A stretch of DNA of 21,870 bases from Breznakia blatticola (GTDB taxonomy: Bacteria; Bacillota_I; Bacilli_A; Erysipelotrichales; Erysipelotrichaceae), in contig NZ_SODD01000040.1 of assembly GCF_004365815.1 (NCBI RefSeq), positions 1 through 21,870 of the forward strand, in the 5' to 3' direction. This document shows positions 14,694 to 21,870 of the stretch, piece after piece; within the stretch, counting starts at the first letter, position 1; each line of letters opens with the position of its first letter. Both the position numbers and the translations under genes were made by a program. Below the pieces are notes generated by a model. That model worked only from the letters and a program-made list of their open reading frames with translations, did not search any database and was not told where the DNA came from.

Positions 14694-14963
14694 ATGAATC
14701 GAAATGAAATATTGAAACTAGCGATCAAAACTTGGGGAGTCGATGCACAAACCAACTGTGCAATGGAAGAACTTGCTGAGTTAATCCAAGCGATTTCAAA
14801 GTTTAAAAGAGGTTACGATAATAAAGAAGATATCATTGATGAAATTGTTGATGTACAAATAATGATTGATCAAATCAAGCTTATATGCGACATTGATGAT
14901 ACAATGTTAGAAAAGCGAGCGACTTACAAGTTGCAACGTATCAAAAACCGTTTAGAGGAGTAG
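14694..14963 (+). CDS. MazG-like all-alpha nucleoside triphosphate pyrophosphohydrolase family protein
   Basis: 89 aa. The two metal-binding motifs of the family occur in order: EELAEL (ExxE type, [18 protein letters not shown]) and DEIVDV (ExxD type, [15 protein letters not shown]). No SD precedes the ATG. Confidence 0.55.
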
Positions 14964-14967
14964 AACT

Positions 14968-16647
14968 ATGATTGATAAGAAAAATCTAAGAAGTGCAAAT
15001 GTTACGGAAGGTGTAGAAAAAACACCTGCACGTAGTTTGTTTTATGCAATGGGATATACAAAAGAAGAATTGGATCGACCACTGATTGGTGTTATTAGTG
15101 CACATAGTGAAGTTGTACCTGGACATATTCATCTAGATAAAATCGCAGAAGCGGTAAAAGCTGGTGTTCGTATGGCCGGTGGTACACCAATTGAAATTCC
15201 TTCGATTGGTGTTTGTGATGGAATTGCAATGGGTCACGAAGGTATGAGATATTCTCTTCCTTCACGTGAACTGATTGCAGACTCTGTTGAAAGTATGACA
15301 ATTGCCCATGCACTTGATGGACTTGTCTTGGTTCCTAACTGTGACAAAATCGTTCCTGGAATGATCATGGGAGCAAGTCGCATCAACATTCCAACTGTTG
15401 TATGTAGTGGTGGACCTATGCTCGCAGGAAATGTAGCTGGTGAAGAAGTTTCCCTATCCAAAACATTTGAAGCAGTTGGTGCCTATAAAGCAGGTATCAT
15501 TGATGAAGCACAATTACTCGATGTAGAAGAAAATTCATGTCCGGGATGTGGTTCATGTGCAGGTATGTATACCGCAAACTCAATGAACTGTTTAAGTGAA
15601 GCGCTAGGTATTGCTTTACCAGGTAATGGAACCATTCCTGCTATTTCAAGTCGTAGAACACAACTTGCTAAACGCGCAGGTATGCAAATCATGGAAATGG
15701 TCGAAAAGGATATTAAAATCCGCGACATTATCAATCCAGTAAGTATTCGCAATGCTTTAGCTTGTGATATGGCTCTTGGTTGTTCATCAAACAGTGTTCT
15801 TCACTTATTAGCTATCGCTAACGAATCTGGAATTCCATTAGATTTAAATATGTTTAATGAAATGAGTGAAAAAGTACCTAACCTTTGTCACCTAGCACCT
15901 GCTGGAGATACACACATGCAAGATCTTAATGCGGCTGGAGGAATTCCTGCTGTACAAAATGAACTAGCAAAGCTAAACTTGCTGGATTTAGATGCATTAA
16001 CCGTAACTGGACAATCCGTTGGCGAAAACATCAAAGGAATTACCAACCGCAACCCAGATACAATTAAACCAGTCGAAACACCATTCTCAAAAACAGGAGG
16101 TATTGCTATCTTGTTTGGTAATATCGCACAAGAAGGATGTGTCGTTAAACGTAGTGCAGTAGCTAAAGAAATGTTAGAACACAAAGGACCTGCACGTGTA
16201 TTTGATAGCGAAGAAGAAGCAATCGATGCCATTTACAAAGGAAGCATCGTTGATGGTGATGTTGTAGTGATTCGTTATGAAGGTCCAAAAGGTGGTCCAG
16301 GAATGCGTGAAATGTTAAACCCAACAAGTGCACTTGCTGGAATGAAACTTGATAAAACGGTTGCTTTAATTACCGATGGACGCTTCTCAGGAGCAAGTCG
16401 TGGAGCAAGTATTGGACACGTATGTCCAGAAGCTGCAGCCGGTGGAAACATTGCACTCATTCAAGAAGGAGATATGATTGAAATCAATATCCCTGCGTAT
16501 TCAATTAACGTGGATGTAAGCGATGAAGAACTTACAAAACGTAAAGAAGCATGGCAACCAAAAGAACCAAACGTGAAACATGGATGGTTAAAACGTTATT
16601 CAATGCTTGTTGATAGCGCCGCTAAAGGTGCCATCATGAAAGACTAA
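14968..16647 (+). CDS. ilvD: Dihydroxy-acid dehydratase
   Basis: 559 aa. Fe-S ligand contexts CDKIVPGM and [16 protein letters not shown], conserved C-terminal [19 protein letters not shown]. Confidence 0.97.
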
Positions 16648-16660
16648 TTCATACAAAGTA

Positions 16661-16689
16661 AAAGTGCCTACATCAAGTAGACACTTTTT
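16661..16689 (+). terminator. Terminator after ilvD (possibly bidirectional)
   Basis: AAAGTGCCTAC (16661-16671) pairs with GTAGACACTTT (16677-16687) with one mismatch, followed by TT. The stop codon of the convergent minus-strand ORF (16673) lies inside the hairpin. Confidence 0.6.
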
Positions 16690-17068
16690 CATTTACAATT
16701 ATCTTTTCATTCGAACGAATAAGTTGCATCAATAAACCGATATTAAAACCCACATATCCAAATACAAGTGAAGATATATTTTGATAAACGGATTCCAGTT
16801 CACTATATAGTGGTTTATCTGCAAGATTTACATAGGTAAGACAAATAGCACAGAAGGTAATAGATAGTACAACAATCAGTATCAACAAATTACGATTTCC
16901 TTTTTTTGAAGCATATATCATCGCAATAAAGCATCCAATTAAAGTCAGTTGTATATATGCAAAATTACCTTTACCAACATCTGCTTGAATTCCATATGTG
17001 AAACCTAAAATCAACAACAAACTAACTACGCTAATTATAATTCCTATTCGTTTCATAGATTGATTCAT
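16673..17068 (-). CDS. Hypothetical membrane protein (4 TM)
   Basis: The track start at 17074 is a TTG inside the SD spacer. I prefer the ATG at 17068 (MNQSMKRIG...), which has AGGAGGG 6 nt upstream. Four hydrophobic helices. I recognised no family. Confidence 0.5.
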   Translation of the reverse strand: MNQSMKRIGIIISVVSLLLILGFTYGIQADVGKGNFAYIQLTLIGCFIAMIYASKKGNRNLLILIVVLSITFCAICLTYVNLADKPLYSELESVYQNISSLVFGYVGFNIGLLMQLIRSNEKIIVNEKVST

Positions 17069-17150
17069 AACCAACCCTCCTTTTACTTATCATATATGTA
17101 TTTTTAATTTCAAACTAATATGTATTCATATATACTACGTCTAAAGCAAG

Positions 17151-17180
17151 AAAAAAGCCCAGGTAAGGGGGTTCCTGGAC
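17151..17180 (-). terminator. Rho-independent terminator after the metalloprotease gene
   Basis: Minus strand: GTCCAGG-aacccccuua-CCTGGGC (17180-17157), followed by TTTTTTCTTGCTTT. Confidence 0.7.
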
Positions 17181-17242
17181 TTTCTCTGTTGTATTAGATA
17201 TACAACTATATAATTATGAAAACATGATTTCAGCAATTTCTA

Positions 17243-18382
17243 TTAGTTAAGTAAATTACGTACATAGTTGTATGAGTGTGGAGCTGCTGCTCGCAATGTA
17301 CCTTGATCATAATAGTAATATACGACAAGGTTCGCTAACCATTCATAACGGTTATCGCGCATGTTTCCACTAAATTTGGCAGGTAAGTTATTCTTTTCTG
17401 CTTGGAAGATACCTTCCAAGTTACCTGATGCATTGGTTGCATAATCATACATATGTGTCATTTCATGTAATGCTGTTGTTGAATAATATGCAGATCCATT
17501 TAGCCACAAGCGACCATCGCTGTATGCCATTCCTAAATATGGATATGACAAGCTATTATCGATTGTGATGGTATGTAAGTTCGAGTTATTAAAGATTGCT
17601 GGCAATCCTTGTAGTTCACTCATATATGAGCGAATGACTCCATCACTTACATCATTTCCAACAACAATTTTCCATCCACGTACATACAAATTGTTACGAT
17701 CTAGTGCTGGCGTAGTATAAGTAGGTGCCGCTGGTGTACTAACTGTATTTGTAGGTTCACTATATCCTGTATAACCGCTTTGTTCTTCAGTCGTTTGTTC
17801 TACTTCATTCACTACTACTTGAACACTTTTACGTGATGTATTATGGTTTGCATCTGTTGCTTCCATAATGACTTCGTATGTTCCTGCTTTTGTACTATCT
17901 ACATCATTTTTCACGTATTCAATTGGTAAATCACCATCAACAACATCATAAGCACTTGCTTCTAAGTCATCAGTTGTAAATGTATCACCAACAGATAATG
18001 TAAGATCATTTGCTTTAATTACTGGAGCTTTCGTATCTTTCATTTGTACGTGAACCATATATATATGTTCGGCAATTGGGTTTTCTGCTTCAATTACTGG
18101 ATTACTATCACTAATTGTTTCTACACGATAGATATCATATAATTTAGAATCTGTCCCACGTGCACTTTCGCTAACGATATGGATTACTTTTTCATTGTCT
18201 TGTGCAAACTTCTCTTTAATTTGTTTTTGGATTGTTTCTGGTTTATCATATTCCATTTGCATATCCACTTTTTGTTCAATTGCGTTGTTTGCTAACGCGT
18301 TTTCATTAAAACGATTCAATGAGAACATTGATCCGGATGCTATCATTAACATCACCAATACAATAGTAATTTGCTTTTTCAT
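17243..18382 (-). CDS. Secreted zinc metallopeptidase: signal peptide, DUF5011-type Ig-like domain, PPEP-like (M34/ATLF-like) catalytic domain
   Basis: 379 aa. Signal peptide MKKQITIVLVMLMIASGSMFSL. The Ig-like segment (KAPVIKANDLTLSVGDTF...AYDVVDGDL...STKAGTYEVIMEATDANHNT) fits the DUF5011 pattern. The C-terminal domain has HEMTH (HExxH) and YEWLANLVVYYYYDQGTLRAAAPHSYNYVRNLL. The latter parallels the C. difficile PPEP-1 C-terminus EEFFAESFAYYYLNQDTNSKLKSACPQTYSFLQNL (recalled from memory). Confidence 0.72.
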   Translation of the reverse strand: MKKQITIVLVMLMIASGSMFSLNRFNENALANNAIEQKVDMQMEYDKPETIQKQIKEKFAQDNEKVIHIVSESARGTDSKLYDIYRVETISDSNPVIEAENPIAEHIYMVHVQMKDTKAPVIKANDLTLSVGDTFTTDDLEASAYDVVDGDLPIEYVKNDVDSTKAGTYEVIMEATDANHNTSRKSVQVVVNEVEQTTEEQSGYTGYSEPTNTVSTPAAPTYTTPALDRNNLYVRGWKIVVGNDVSDGVIRSYMSELQGLPAIFNNSNLHTITIDNSLSYPYLGMAYSDGRLWLNGSAYYSTTALHEMTHMYDYATNASGNLEGIFQAEKNNLPAKFSGNMRDNRYEWLANLVVYYYYDQGTLRAAAPHSYNYVRNLLN

Positions 18383-18653
18383 ACATCTCTGACCCCTTTC
18401 GTCATATTCTGTTTCACAATTTAATACTTTTCATACTATATATTTATCATAACCTACATTATTAGTAGGAATTAATATCTAAGGGAAATCCAGTTTAGCG
18501 ACATGGATAGGTCGAATGAATAAATGTGTGTGTTGTGTGTGTTTATAGAGGGATTTTTCACTTAAACCTATATTTTTGGTAGGATTTTAGATTTAAGCAA
18601 TAACCGCTTACACATCGCGGTTTGTAAATAGAGTAACCTTTATTTACATGCAC

Positions 18654-18681
18654 ATTCTAGCATAACTGAGGGGGTAGTCAA
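18654..18681 (-). promoter_or_regulatory. Extended -10 promoter inside array module 3
   Basis: Minus strand: TTGACT (18681-18676), 16-nt spacer ending in TGc, TAGAAT (18659-18654). It starts 9 nt downstream of the module-3 palindrome. Confidence 0.55.
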
Positions 18682-18776
18682 CTATAATGCCTATCATATT
18701 AATAGGAATATAAATCTTAAGAATTACTGCACATTATCAGCAGTCAATTCAAAGGTATCTCTCTCTTTACACTCTC

Positions 18777-18804
18777 ATAATACCACATATTACCCACACG
18801 TCAA
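18777..18804 (-). promoter_or_regulatory. Extended -10 promoter inside array module 4
   Basis: Minus strand: TTGACG (18804-18799), 16-nt spacer ending in TGg, TATTAT (18782-18777). It has the same offset from its palindrome as the module-3 promoter and lies exactly 123 bp from it. Confidence 0.55.
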
Positions 18805-18861
18805 CAGATAAGCCTACAAATTTAGTAGGAATAACATAATTTACCAAAATTGTCTTTGCAT

Positions 18862-18895
18862 ATAAAAAGAAGACTGGATTATTCCATATCTTCTT
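18862..18895 (-). terminator. Rho-independent terminator of the DUF815 ATPase gene
   Basis: Minus strand: AAGAAGA-taTGGAataaTCCAg-TCTTCTT (18895-18867), followed by TTTATATG. The stem includes the last codons and the stop codon of the gene. Confidence 0.7.
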
Positions 18896-20072
18896 GAATC
18901 TTTTGCATCTCAACAAATTGCTTTGCAGTACGTGGACTACGTCCATTATTACGAATCGCAAACATCTCTGCTTGCGTAATTAATTCATCCCCACTGATTG
19001 TCAGTTGGTTTTCTCTTGCTAAACCTTGGACAATTTCTAAATATAAATCTTTGTTAGGTTTTTGGAATGTAATGGTTAGTCCAAAGCGTGCAGCTAAACT
19101 CATTGTTTCTTGAATGGAATCATTGGTGAATAGTTCATCACTATTTCGATCTTTCATACTTTCCTTAACGAAATGACGTCGATTTGTCGTTGCATAGATT
19201 AATACATTTTTTTGACGCCCACCAACACCACCTTCTAAGATGGTCTTCAATGCCACAAAATTATCATCGTTACCTGAGAAACTTAAATCATCAATAAAGA
19301 TAATAAACTTCAAAGGGTTCTTTGCAAGCTCATCCATCAGTTCTGGCAGTTTGTGTAACAACTGTTTACTTACTTCAATTAAACGCAATCCTTTTTTATG
19401 GTATGCATTGGCAATCGCCTTTACTGTTGAACTTTTCCCAGTTCCTGCATCACCATACAGCAATGTATTACTTGCTTTCATTCCTTGTAAGAATGCTAAA
19501 GTATTTTGTTTTACCTGATTTCTTTCACGTTCATATCCAATGAGTTCGGATACATCTTGTGGATCTGGATGTTTAACTGGGAGCAATCCATGTTGTTCTA
19601 AACGGAACACATGATACTTTGCATACATTCCATATCCATCAATTGGTAAACGCTCCATTTTTGTTAGATAGTCTTTTTTGAATTGATATTTCGTGTTTTT
19701 CCATTTCGGTAAGAACCCTGGATATGGTAAGTCTTTCAGTAATTGTTGCGAAGTTAATGAACTCACTTCTTGCAGTACACGAAGTTCATGCAACAAACTT
19801 TGATGCAATACATTTTCAACTGGTTTTTGTTGCGCAATTCTAGATACGTATACATTTTCATTACGCATCACAAACTTATATATGTAACGTGACAAGTTTG
19901 TATCTTTATAAAATAAACTTGCACAGAAATCACAATAGTAATTGATATACGATTCCACTTCTTGATCATTAGCATCTAGTAGTGTTCTAAGCTTTATAAT
20001 TACTTCATCTTGTAGGATACTACGAAAAATCACAAGTGAATTTAAGCGTTTTTGTAATTCCGTAAACTTCAT
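18879..20072 (-). CDS. DUF815-family P-loop (AAA-like) ATPase, function unknown
   Basis: 397 aa. Walker A LLYGDAGTGKSSTVKAI, Walker B FIIFIDDLSF, then ATTNRRH. The ~190-aa N-terminal region is of unknown function. The overall layout is typical of DUF815 ATP-binding proteins. GAGGGGTG SD. Confidence 0.8.
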   Translation of the reverse strand: MKFTELQKRLNSLVIFRSILQDEVIIKLRTLLDANDQEVESYINYYCDFCASLFYKDTNLSRYIYKFVMRNENVYVSRIAQQKPVENVLHQSLLHELRVLQEVSSLTSQQLLKDLPYPGFLPKWKNTKYQFKKDYLTKMERLPIDGYGMYAKYHVFRLEQHGLLPVKHPDPQDVSELIGYERERNQVKQNTLAFLQGMKASNTLLYGDAGTGKSSTVKAIANAYHKKGLRLIEVSKQLLHKLPELMDELAKNPLKFIIFIDDLSFSGNDDNFVALKTILEGGVGGRQKNVLIYATTNRRHFVKESMKDRNSDELFTNDSIQETMSLAARFGLTITFQKPNKDLYLEIVQGLARENQLTISGDELITQAEMFAIRNNGRSPRTAKQFVEMQKIQEDME

Positions 20073-20144
20073 ATAATCACCCCTCTATTGGCTTTAAAAA
20101 TTATTACATATCATTTTCTATCCTTTGATATTTATAGTATATCA

Positions 20145-20188
20145 TGAAAAAAACCGAGTATCACGATGAATGTATACATGGATACTCA
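20145..20188 (-). terminator. Rho-independent terminator of the adhesin gene
   Basis: Minus strand: CTGAGTATC (20188-20180) pairs with GATACTCGG (20161-20153) over 9 bp including one G-U pair, with an 18-nt loop, followed by a T8 run (20152-20145). Confidence 0.8.
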
Positions 20189-20212
20189 GTTTATATTCTT
20201 ACAATTTACAAT

Positions 20213-21538
20213 CTATCTTTTGTTGAATACTCGTTTCTTTGTGTAAAGAAGTGTTACTGAACTAGCAAACAATAGCATTAAGTAAAAACTTGCATTGCTT
20301 GTATCACTTGTCTCAACACCAGTTGATGGTCTATTAACTACTTCTTCCGGTTTATTTGGCTTTGAAGGATTTTCCGGTTTCACTGGTTCATTTGGCACTT
20401 CAGGTTTGTTTGGTTTTTCAGGTTTTTCAGGAACAGTTGATTCTAATAATAATTCGCCATTAACCTCATCCATAGCCACAGTTCTATTCCAAAAGCTGAT
20501 TCCTAAGTCTTGTGTATTTCCGTTCACTGGTTTATATATCGTATATCTTTCTTCAAGAGTAACACCAGTAATTCTTATAGATACTTTAGATGTAATTGAT
20601 TCTTTCAGTTGCGTTTTATGAATCCTCACTTTAAATCCATTTACAGTAGGCATGTTTTGATTTGAAAAATCACCATTACTATCACTCACTTCGTAAACAA
20701 CATCGCTACTAATCGAAATATCGGTACTTACAAAATCTCCCACTTGACTTACTTCAACCATATTTGAAGTATAGTAGCCAGTTTCTTCATCAAATGTAAA
20801 TGTTAAATCCGTATTATCAAAAGTAAGTTCTGGTTGATTAGACGTATGTGCAAAACCATTATTTTCTAAATCTTGATAAACTGAATTAAGCACATCAATA
20901 AGTTTCAATTGCAGTTGAAACTTTTCATCATCCACAGTATTGTATGTATCCACATATTTTCCTGCGTTATAGTCTACAATGAATTGATCTTTATTTTTTA
21001 CAACTTTCAAAGCATTCTCAAAATCTGCCGATCCGTATGTCTCATTGTTATATAAATATCTCCACAAAGTAAATTGTTTTATATAATACTCAATTTGTTC
21101 TTTTGTAGCAGCTTTTGTTTCTCCAATTTGAATTATATTTTCTAATCCGTCAATACTATACGCATCGAGATCTATTCCCATTATTGCTTTTAGAGCGTAC
21201 CCATATTCATTTTGACTTAAATTTCCATCTAAAACTTTATCAAAAATATAGTCATCTCTTTCGCTTGGGTAAGAAATAGTCGGAGATATACAATATGCAA
21301 TTCCAGTATATGTCTCTCCTTTTTCGTCTTCATACGTCACATTCATATACGCATGATCTTCTCTTGATACACCGCCTCTAGTTTCATCAAGATAATACAA
21401 TCCCATAATAAACGGCCCTCTTTGAGATACCGTCATTTGATCTGGATAGTAGAAACCTGTATCAGCCTCCACAAATCCAAACTGTACTAGCAGCATACAT
21501 GCAGCTATACAGCCAATAAAAAATCTTTTAAGGTTCAT
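20213..21538 (-). CDS. Cell-wall-sorted surface protein with putative thioester domain (TED), Ig-like middle domain and Pro-rich stalk
   Basis: The track start at 21562 is a GTG. I prefer the ATG at 21538 (MNLKRFFIGC...), which has AGGAGG 9 nt upstream. Signal peptide ending VEA/DTG. AYCISP fits the TED Cys motif [YFL]C-phi-[DNEHS], and KQFTLW roughly fits the Gln motif phi-Q-x-phi-phi-W about 72 residues later. Stalk PEKPEKPNKPEVPNEPVKPENPSKPNKPEE. The C-terminus has RPSTG, a hydrophobic helix and KKRVFNKR (sortase-type sorting signal). Confidence 0.65.
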   Translation of the reverse strand: MNLKRFFIGCIAACMLLVQFGFVEADTGFYYPDQMTVSQRGPFIMGLYYLDETRGGVSREDHAYMNVTYEDEKGETYTGIAYCISPTISYPSERDDYIFDKVLDGNLSQNEYGYALKAIMGIDLDAYSIDGLENIIQIGETKAATKEQIEYYIKQFTLWRYLYNNETYGSADFENALKVVKNKDQFIVDYNAGKYVDTYNTVDDEKFQLQLKLIDVLNSVYQDLENNGFAHTSNQPELTFDNTDLTFTFDEETGYYTSNMVEVSQVGDFVSTDISISSDVVYEVSDSNGDFSNQNMPTVNGFKVRIHKTQLKESITSKVSIRITGVTLEERYTIYKPVNGNTQDLGISFWNRTVAMDEVNGELLLESTVPEKPEKPNKPEVPNEPVKPENPSKPNKPEEVVNRPSTGVETSDTSNASFYLMLLFASSVTLLYTKKRVFNKR

Positions 21539-21634
21539 TTCTTCTTTCCTCCTATTGAACACACATAATACACATTTCTATATATTCTTCACACAAAATG
21601 CGCAATATTATATTAGCATATTTGCATATAACTG

Positions 21635-21653
21635 ACTACATTAAAAATGTAGT
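21635..21653 (-). other. Hairpin/palindrome in the adhesin 5' leader
   Basis: ACTACAT (21635-21641), loop TAAAA, ATGTAGT (21647-21653): a perfect 7-bp inverted repeat. It lies about 100 nt upstream of the adhesin ATG and downstream of the predicted promoter. Confidence 0.4.
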
Positions 21654-21752
21654 AACCAAAAAGCACTTTTCAACTAAAAAAGACAATTAACTAAACTTAG
21701 AAATCACAAGTATTGTGCAAATCATATCAAGGTACATCAATGTTTAACTTGC

Positions 21753-21781
21753 ATTATACAACTAATTTCCACTTCTGTAAA
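21753..21781 (-). promoter_or_regulatory. Sigma-A type promoter for the adhesin gene
   Basis: Minus strand: TTTACA (21781-21776), 17-nt spacer, TATAAT (21758-21753). This implies a 5' UTR of about 200 nt. Confidence 0.6.
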
Positions 21782-21870
21782 TGTCAATTATAAATTAACG
21801 AAAATTCGGAATCAGAGTTGATGAATTTTCGGAATATGAGTTGAAGAAAAATCGGAATTATAAATTGATG
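21779..21870. repeat. At least four tandem 22-24-bp direct repeats (iteron-like / activator-site-like), truncated by the window edge
   Basis: Copies: aaatgtcaattataaattaacg (21779-21800), aaaattcggaatcagagttgatg (21801-21823), aattttcggaatatgagttgaag (21824-21846), aaaaatcggaattataaattgatg (21847-21870). Consensus AAAWTTCGGAAT-N4-5-RTTGAWG. The first (most degenerate) copy overlaps the adhesin -35 element. Confidence 0.65.

Follow-up and report, generated by a model that had tools for sequence, protein, structure and literature searches.

Does a predicted secreted metalloprotease of Breznakia blatticola (Erysipelotrichaceae) act together with a surface protein that is encoded two genes away? 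The question is raised by a stretch of 21,870 bp, hereafter called the window, which is a whole contig of this species. Between 16.6 and 21.6 kb, its minus strand carries four genes, which encode a surface protein (the adhesin), an ATPase of the DUF815 family, the protease, and a small membrane protein. An earlier note on this DNA had pointed to a likeness between the protease and PPEP-1, a Pro-Pro endopeptidase (PPEP) of C. difficile, and had proposed that the protease and the adhesin form an adhesion/release module. The likeness proves to be real, with statistical support at the profile and fold levels only, whereas the proposed module is not supported. The reading that we favor, with a probability of roughly 0.7, is that the protein is a stand-alone, exported zinc endopeptidase with the M34/ATLF fold, which acts in trans, is a distant cousin of the PPEPs, and has no dedicated adhesin partner.

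Fold of the C-terminal domain

To build a family profile, 16 homologues were gathered that are 40 to 98% identical and derive exclusively from Breznakia or Erysipelotrichaceae MTC7. This profile matches PPEP-1 in the PDB with E-values of 3e-5 to 5e-5 and PPEP-3 with E-values of 2e-4 to 6e-4, and six of the 16 family members match Pfam ATLF (best E-value 2.9e-6). An alignment of the family by hhalign with a sequence that we take to be that of PPEP-1, and that agrees with 12 of 12 published residue numbers as well as with the fragments printed by HMMER, yields a probability of 95.2%, an E-value of 2.6e-8, and 35% identity across 71 columns. In an exhaustive hidden Markov model (HMM) search of 1.8 billion representatives, the family profile recovered eight close clusters (E ≤ 1e-30), followed by a gap down to 1e-14 and then by 167 distant proteins. 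Among 45 distant relatives sampled from this tail, 36 match Pfam ATLF, with E-values down to 5e-23.

The predicted structure agrees with these alignments. An AlphaFold2 (AF2) model of residues 223 to 379 (157 residues) has a predicted local distance difference test score (pLDDT) of 93.2 and a predicted template-modeling score of 0.87. A fold search with the full-length model was swamped by matches to Ig-like and cadherin domains, and the catalytic domain alone was used instead. The top 30 matches of this domain in a Foldseek search against the PDB are all PPEP-1, PPEP-2, or PPEP-3 (query-normalized template-modeling (TM) scores of 0.63 to 0.69, 14 to 20% identity, probability 1.0), and ranks 31 to 46 are occupied by anthrax lethal factor (TM scores of 0.55 to 0.64, probability 1.0). 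The earlier note had made its proposal hinge on a match to the M34/PPEP fold that is significant by HMM or by structure, and such a match was found with the family profile, hhalign, and Foldseek. At the fold level, these data support the assignment of the predicted C-terminal domain as an M34/ATLF-type zincin whose closest solved structures are the PPEPs. A phage origin of the protease was considered and rejected, wherein PHROG gave no match and a viral fold library gave generic zincin matches only.

The residues expected of a zinc peptidase are found at the corresponding positions. Each of the 16 family members retains His306, Glu307, His310, and Glu347, and the HEMTH motif together with Glu347 aligns with the zinc ligands His142, His146, and Glu185 and the general base Glu143 of PPEP-1. 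Moreover, the mean column identity is 73% for the catalytic domain versus 55% for the rest of the protein. We propose that the protein would be exported by the Sec pathway and that either its signal anchor or its Ig-like domain might tether the protease, be it to the cell surface or to a substrate. A zinc ion would be bound by His306, His310, and Glu347, Glu307 would serve as the general base, and the zinc-activated water would allow the enzyme to cut extended segments of extracellular polypeptides in trans. Export, this activity, the class of substrate, and any preference for Pro-rich segments are inferred. Two kinds of substrate seem equally likely, each at well below even odds: sortase-type surface proteins and pili of the cell itself, which the enzyme would trim or set free, and host or dietary protein, whose digestion would supply peptides for uptake.

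Gene order and the roles it would allow

The close protease family (E ≤ 1e-30) was seen only in the genomes of Breznakia and Erysipelotrichaceae MTC7, where two to four paralogues occur per genome, and a literature search found no paper on the Breznakia family. It represents a new subfamily, confined to one lineage, within a fold that is already known, and does not amount to a new kind of system. The most informative comparison is with a strain whose protease is 98% identical (L008 to L010). This strain keeps ilvD, the membrane protein gene, the protease gene, the 496-bp gap upstream of it, and the DUF815 gene, but a divergent gene for a pyridoxal phosphate-dependent enzyme occupies the place of the adhesin gene. 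DNA homology between the two loci (window 20090 to 21870 versus L008:7022-8310) extends no further than 17 bp upstream of the start codon of the DUF815 gene, and this boundary looks variable or insertion-prone. In MTC7, the contig begins 94 bp upstream of the orthologous protease gene, so the upstream neighbors lie beyond the sequence. No homologues of the adhesin or of DUF815 were found by tblastn near other paralogues (L001 to L007 and L011 to L013) or within 8 to 10 kb of them, and no DUF815 gene was called in the remaining protease loci. The adhesin gene appears to be a strain-specific insertion beside a conserved block that consists of ilvD and the membrane protein, protease, and DUF815 genes.

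The systems of PPEP-1 and PPEP-2 have three traits in common, which are a P-P-X-P cleavage site, a directly adjacent substrate gene, and cyclic di-GMP (c-di-GMP) riboswitches (PMC8610288). None of the three is present at the Breznakia locus and, because synteny is also broken, an adhesion/release module is unsupported as a genetic unit. The earlier note had looked to co-occurrence of the protease and the adhesin in related genomes, and this comparison came out against it, given that the orthologous locus has no adhesin gene. A functional unit of protease, DUF815 ATPase, and adhesin likewise fails to find support, since the 98%-identical locus lacks the adhesin, the adhesin is an orphan, and the paralogues of the protease reside mostly in housekeeping contexts. 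A role for DUF815 in the protease system was rejected because its gene adjoins the protease in one orthologous group only. The linkage was removed by one comparison with a near-identical strain.

Several observations weigh against our reading. The window protease itself has no match to Pfam ATLF (PF07737) at E ≤ 1 and none in NCBIfam, and a single-sequence phmmer search of the PDB gave PPEP-3 with an E-value of only 0.2 and no match to PPEP-1. Hence, of the M34/ATLF relationship that the earlier note had suggested, the direct Pfam match did not materialize, whereas homology through the family profile and its distant relatives, along with the fold, did. With respect to synteny, the relative is only 2% diverged, and loss of the adhesin there and gain of it in the window are equally possible. 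Finally, C-terminally anchored surface proteins adjoin three of about 15 family loci, which are the window, the B. pachnodae locus L003, and the metagenomic contig L016. The protease family may therefore have a looser functional tie to surface proteins.

Under such a looser tie, the family as a whole could act in trans on pili and on surface proteins that depend on sortase, either processing them or setting them free, without being bound to any one partner gene, and its substrates would be the window adhesin, a 724-amino-acid protein of L003, and the pilins of L016. We regard this as a tentative possibility. In L003, the 724-amino-acid surface protein is encoded 300 bp after the protease paralogue and has a Pro-rich stalk of the PEKP type that lacks Pro-Pro, followed by a hydrophobic anchor and a basic tail. 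In L016, a complete pilus operon (L016:1-9137) encodes a CLIPPER/SpaA tip protein (LPSTGG), a pilin (LPNTGG), and two sortases, and only 18 bp separate the second sortase gene from that for P0023, a distant family member of identical architecture, which in turn precedes four DUF6138 genes. Across some 334 kb of flanks, part of which are redundant, the anchored proteins of the window, L003, and L016 are the only ones present, and all three are encoded within 3 kb of a protease gene. Characterized PPEPs do cut surface proteins, and their genes can adjoin those of their substrates (PMC8610288). However, three contexts are too few for a significance test. Furthermore, the L003 protein occupies a variable slot that elsewhere holds an insertion sequence (IS) element or a lipoprotein gene, the L016 pilins lack a Pro-rich stalk, and other distant family members reside in contexts that resemble mobile elements or include cell wall hydrolases.

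A nutritional or host-directed exoprotease, which would convert dietary or insect-gut protein to peptides for import and final degradation by cytoplasmic aminopeptidases, is equally plausible, and we hold it just as provisionally. B. blatticola is an insect-gut fermenter according to its species description, and several paralogues per genome would fit diversified substrate ranges. The largest paralogue group occupies a slot after uppS-cdsA-dxr-rseP-M24-M18 (L003, L004, L012 to L014, L019, and L020), wherein a gene for an M24 Xaa-Pro-aminopeptidase-like protein always precedes the protease gene on the same strand and an M18 aminopeptidase gene usually does so as well. This recurrence suggests a nutritional role, but the order of M24 and M18 is part of the housekeeping block uppS-cdsA-dxr-rseP and may be historical, and gaps of 140 to 260 bp lie ahead of the protease gene. 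In addition, the window paralogue is not beside a peptidase gene, and no peptide transporter is encoded nearby.

A more specific conjecture can be drawn from the same loci, although we consider it improbable. It holds that the family is a branch of the PPEP fold that has lost the S-loop and moved its catalytic Tyr beside the Glu ligand, that specificity has shifted from Pro-Pro to X-Pro-rich stalks of the ‘PxKP’ type, and that the enzymes would shed sortase-anchored adhesins and pili in trans. The L016 operon would then be ancestral, and the B. blatticola adhesin would be one substrate.

Poorer still are the prospects of an adhesion/release switch at the window locus, in which a PPEP-family enzyme of altered specificity cuts the Pro-rich stalk of its dedicated adhesin outside the sorting signal. 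Such a switch is suggested by the PPEP-like fold evident from Foldseek and hhalign, by an adhesin layout that fits (signal peptide, stalk before RPSTG, hydrophobic segment, and basic tail), and by the location of both genes on the same strand within 3 kb. CD3246, a substrate of PPEP-1, is likewise a thioester-domain adhesin (PMC8610288). Nevertheless, the adhesin is missing from the orthologous locus of the strain with the 98%-identical protease, and as an orphan it faces a many-membered protease family. The two genes are kept apart by the DUF815 gene and the 496-bp gap and have promoter-like sites of their own, there is neither a P-P-X-P site nor a c-di-GMP riboswitch, Tyr178 of the PPEPs is not conserved, and, by the predicted secondary structure, their S-loop would not be either. 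Of the suggestion that a PPEP-family member with new specificity acts on this adhesin, what stands is a fold of the M34/ATLF type near the PPEPs, whereas the dedicated adhesin partner does not. The proximity of a protease to a stalked adhesin, even when combined with a likeness of motifs, is insufficient to infer a release switch.

Least probable of all is a catalytically inactive PPEP-like module with a binding role, for which CD1597 provides a precedent as a protein with HEXXH and an extra N-terminal domain but no proteolysis (PMC11460543) and for which the presence of Asp343 or Phe337 at the position of the oxyanion Tyr178 would also speak, because the zinc ligands and general base are invariant in all 16 sequences, the catalytic domain is the best conserved part of the protein, the invariant Tyr346 beside the Glu ligand could replace the missing Tyr, and an export signal is present, unlike in CD1597.

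If the stand-alone enzyme that we favor is active, then the PPEP/lethal factor fold would extend into the Erysipelotrichaceae, a group outside the 2021 PPEP survey. The practical value is modest and consists of a secreted protease family in insect-gut bacteria, with the L016 operon as a concrete place to look for a link to pili.

Features of the locus

Every feature named in the earlier note was located at the place given there, which applies to the quoted motifs, to the three genes and the gap of 496 bp, and to the Pro-rich stalk devoid of Pro-Pro. The remainder of the contig is of a housekeeping nature and includes ilvBNCD, glyA, rpiB, uvrB, and genes for an S41 peptidase and for transporters. 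The gene for the small membrane protein keeps its place in the 98% relative, and MTC7 lacks it. Between ilvC and ilvD lies an 89-codon open reading frame (ORF; 14694-14963, plus strand), whose counterpart, also of 89 amino acids, is called in the 98% relative (L008:13419-13688).

Table 1. Coordinates of features in the protease–adhesin region of the B. blatticola window. Residue numbers refer to the protein named in each row.
Feature	Position	Strand	Basis
Small four-helix-like membrane protein gene, 133 aa, downstream of protease	16673..17074	-	weak Pfam matches only
Predicted secreted multidomain zinc metalloprotease gene, 379 aa (EDD63_14019)	17243..18382	-	ORF and database record
Protease, putative signal peptide or signal anchor, residues 1-31 (MKK, hydrophobic run, ALA)	18290..18382	-	read from sequence
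Protease, predicted beta-alpha-beta-beta-beta domain, residues 36-115	18038..18277	-	AF2 model, pLDDT 80-94
Protease, Ig-like domain (Big_3 / Bact_surface_Ig-like, formerly DUF5011), residues 120-192	17807..18025	-	Pfam, PDB, Foldseek
Protease, disordered Thr/Pro/Glu-rich linker, residues 193-225	17708..17806	-	pLDDT <50 at 196-223; variable alignment columns
Protease, compact M34/ATLF-fold catalytic domain, residues 226-379	17246..17707	-	AF2, Foldseek, hhalign
Protease, invariant YPYLGMAY loop and edge strand	17522-17545	-	alignment
Protease, HEMTH, residues 306-310	17453-17467	-	sequence
Protease, invariant Glu347	17342-17344	-	alignment
Protease, YEWLA, residues 346-350			sequence
Protease, C-terminal YYYYDQ...RNLL block, residues 355-378: YYYYDQGTLRAAAPHSYNYVRNLL			sequence
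Intergenic region, 496 bp, with four palindromes and two promoter-like sites	18383..18878	-	sequence
DUF815 AAA-type ATPase gene, 397 aa	18879..20072	-	PF05673, E 3.3e-84
Surface protein (adhesin) gene, 441 aa, ATG preceded by AGGAGG	20213..21538	-	sequence
Adhesin, N-terminal signal peptide: MNLKRFFIGCIAACMLLVQFGFVEA			sequence
Adhesin, Pro-rich stalk, residues 370-399 (30 residues): PEKPEKPNKPEVPNEPVKPENPSKPNKPEE	20342-20431	-	sequence
Adhesin, stretch of the stalk region: STVPEKPEKPNKPEVPNEPVKPENPSKPNKPEEVVNRPSTG			
Adhesin, RPSTG, residues 403-407	20318-20332	-	sequence
Adhesin, hydrophobic stretch, residues 418-432, then basic tail; C-terminus: FYLMLLFASSVTLLY followed by TKKRVFNKR			sequence

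The protease has a domain arrangement that is not reported before. As had been noted, the protein has two parts that PPEP-1 does not, which are an additional N-terminal region and an Ig-like domain of the DUF5011 type, the former seen in the AF2 model and the latter with Pfam matches that are below threshold. Residues 1 to 35 are modeled with pLDDT values below 50, and signal cleavage would occur after Ala31 of the ALA motif. The predicted N-terminal domain comprises strands at residues 37 to 44, 64 to 71, 82 to 91, and 106 to 115 and a helix at residues 48 to 61; it has no family match in Pfam or NCBIfam scans and is missing from the short paralogues P0014 to P0016. The Ig-like domain matches PF16403 (E 9.6e-5) and Big_3 PF07523 (E 7e-4), each under the gathering score, as well as the Big_3 structure 2kpn in the PDB (E 4e-5), and its Foldseek matches are 2kpn and InlK.

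That a DUF815 ATPase gene and a 496-bp gap are interposed between the protease and adhesin genes was confirmed. The DUF815 match covers residues 154 to 388 of the ATPase and profile positions 4 to 243 of 249, and the gene also adjoins the protease gene in the 98% relative (L008 to L010). The gap is probably a regulatory region or the 5′ leader of the protease gene. It contains four CCTAY-N7-RTAGG palindromes between 18453 and 18829, spaced by 114, 123, and 123 bp, that are found nowhere else in the window, and none of 100 shuffled sequences reached four. Two strong promoter-like sites with an extended −10 element are present on the minus strand of the gap (18804-18777 and 18681-18654). The palindromes at 18813 and 18690 lie about 7 nt upstream of these sites, and a short hairpin follows 45 to 60 nt further on in each case. 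The palindromes could be operator sites, or the arrangement could represent two tiny transcription units. An Rfam scan of 16600-21870 at E ≤ 1 gave no match and no c-di-GMP riboswitch, and the RNA fold of the whole gap is marginally better than that of shuffled sequences (z-score −1.9). Conservation of the gap is uninformative because it occurs in no relative other than the one with about 98% identity. Small ORFs in the gap were judged unconvincing.

The adhesin is encoded on the same strand as the protease and two genes away, with a Pro-rich stalk ahead of its sorting signal and no Pro-Pro in that stalk, as had been described; indeed, there is no Pro-Pro dipeptide in the whole adhesin. Its signal peptide, hydrophobic segment, and basic tail conform to the layout of a wall-anchored surface protein, as judged from the sequence. 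RPSTG keeps the PxTG core, and its first residue is not known from any sorting variant. NCBIfam relates the C-terminus weakly to that of an LPXTG family (E 0.2), and there is no sortase gene in the window. The adhesin gene has its own strong promoter-like site (21781-21753), separate from the two in the gap before the protease gene. Its region has the lowest GC content in the window (0.31), and the contig ends 332 bp past its start.

A thioester-type domain in the adhesin is possible. Cys83 in the motif AYCIS is the sole Cys of the predicted mature protein, and Gln155 in KQFTLW lies 72 residues further on; both motifs are degenerate relative to (Y/F)C(I/L/V) and TQxA(I/V)W. The earlier label of thioester adhesin has these candidate motifs behind it but no significant profile match, given that the Pfam TED profile (PF08341) reaches only an E-value of 0.088 (13.7 bits, below the cut-off of 22) and that NCBIfam TQXA gives no match. 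UniRef names the adhesin a TQXA domain protein. Searches with the full-length protein and with the region lacking the stalk recovered no homologues in a 5.8-billion-protein index, the PDB, or plasmids, where the failure of the full-length search is partly due to the fact that the 90% cluster representative in the index is a 49-amino-acid fragment, so that the full protein does not even recover its own entry. The Pro-rich region matches phrog_31248 in PHROG (E 3e-5), probably through low complexity.

Two unrelated Breznakia surface proteins share an ending (window 20216-20332 and L003:13480-13657), in which a Pro-rich stalk is followed by EE-x-VN...TG and then by SD(T/H)SN, which immediately precedes the hydrophobic segment and the basic tail. 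In the L003 protein of B. pachnodae, VNLTG is present and PxTG is not. This shared ending may be a lineage-specific sorting signal.

Homologues of the protease occur in further contexts. Some paralogues are located beside pta and glycogen genes (L002, L005, and L011), and others have a LytTR two-component system or uvrA as neighbors (L006 and L015). In the main paralogue group, the slot between the protease gene and hlyIII-smc varies and holds genes for a surface protein and a sigma factor of the extracytoplasmic function (ECF) type, a small lipoprotein gene, or an IS element. Distant homologues with the Ig-like plus ATLF layout are found among mobile-element-like genes in L017, L021, and L022. 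One of these loci has an NrdD gene interrupted by an intein/LAGLIDADG element together with RNase T, RuvC, and topoisomerase genes, one has a ToxN toxin, and the third has TraF-like and PadR genes. Another distant family member overlaps a gene for a choline-binding NlpC/P60 protein.

Comparison with known systems

Among known systems, the closest are the PPEPs of C. difficile (PPEP-1, also called Zmp1 or CD2830), Paenibacillus alvei (PPEP-2), and Geobacillus thermodenitrificans (PPEP-3), which are assigned to EC 3.4.24.89 and MEROPS family M34. The Breznakia protease shares with them the HEXXH helix, a Glu as third zinc ligand, the C-terminal helices with the pattern YYY...AP..Y..(F/V), and an aligned GN motif. 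The PPEPs are secreted and, as read from its sequence, the Breznakia protein would be too. However, only the C-terminal half of the Breznakia domain, from HEXXH onwards, can be aligned with PPEP-1 by sequence. The catalytic domain has 157 residues versus about 193 in the PPEPs, and its N-terminal subdomain is predicted to have one helix and four strands rather than three helices and five strands.

Another difference concerns the S-loop, which in PPEP-1 carries Trp103 and Tyr113 and closes over the P1-P1′ prolines. According to predicted secondary structure, the corresponding region in Breznakia (DNSLSYPYL) has about eight residues instead of about 28 and would thus be some 20 residues shorter. 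The oxyanion Tyr also differs. In PPEPs, this residue is positioned seven residues ahead of the Glu ligand (Tyr178 in PPEP-1 and Tyr190 in PPEP-3), whereas the equivalent position in Breznakia is Asp343 by hhalign or the Phe/Tyr337 column by hmmsearch, and the residue seven ahead of Glu347 is Asn340. An invariant Tyr346 directly precedes Glu347 in the Breznakia family and is therefore at another position than the oxyanion Tyr of PPEPs, for which it could substitute. In addition, the Breznakia protease has the N-terminal and Ig-like domains that the PPEPs lack, and neither a c-di-GMP riboswitch nor a neighboring P-P-X-P protein accompanies it.

Anthrax lethal factor (M34; PF07737) has the same zincin fold as the predicted Breznakia domain, and the distant relatives of the protease are members of Pfam ATLF. 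Lethal factor, though, is a 776-amino-acid toxin with other domains and a host mitogen-activated protein kinase kinase as substrate, and the Breznakia protease does not match it at the level of sequence. CD1597 of C. difficile has a PPEP-like HEXXH domain and an extra N-terminal domain, is spore-associated, lacks a signal peptide, and displayed no proteolytic activity (PMC11460543). Its order of parts, wherein an uncharacterized N-terminal domain and a flexible linker precede a C-terminal PPEP-like HEXXH domain, resembles that of the Breznakia protease, but the latter differs by its putative export signal and its Ig-like domain.

The adhesin can be compared with the sortase-anchored adhesins of the TED/TQXA type (CD3246, Cpa, and SfbI), which it resembles in its single Cys of the predicted mature chain (in AYCIS), its QFTLW motif, its Pro-rich stalk, and its putative C-terminal anchor. 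It differs from them in its TED E-value of only 0.088, in having no homologues and no PDB match, and in its RPSTG in place of LPXTG or (S/P)PXTG.

Also related to the Breznakia protease is a set of small, secreted, ATLF-like metagenomic proteins (such as P0029, P0036, P0039, and P0042; about 175 to 200 amino acids) that match the Breznakia profile with E-values of 1e-8 to 1e-10. These share the Glu-ligand helix ‘GN..N.YEF(F/W)A’, in which Tyr stands right before Glu as it does in YEWLAN, and have the same domain length, but they are single-domain proteins.

The PPEP family has been delimited by BLAST at 1e-25 versus PPEP-1 and PPEP-2 (PMC8610288), and the Breznakia protease falls far outside this boundary. 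Given that a long S-loop is probably absent and that the PPEP position of the oxyanion Tyr holds another residue, Pro-Pro specificity should not be assumed. If the enzyme is active, its reduced catalytic core and its novel arrangement of domains could help to define which parts of the fold dictate this specificity. As judged from the alignments and the model, the protease is a divergent zincin with the ATLF/M34 fold that resembles the PPEPs and is not a PPEP in the strict sense.

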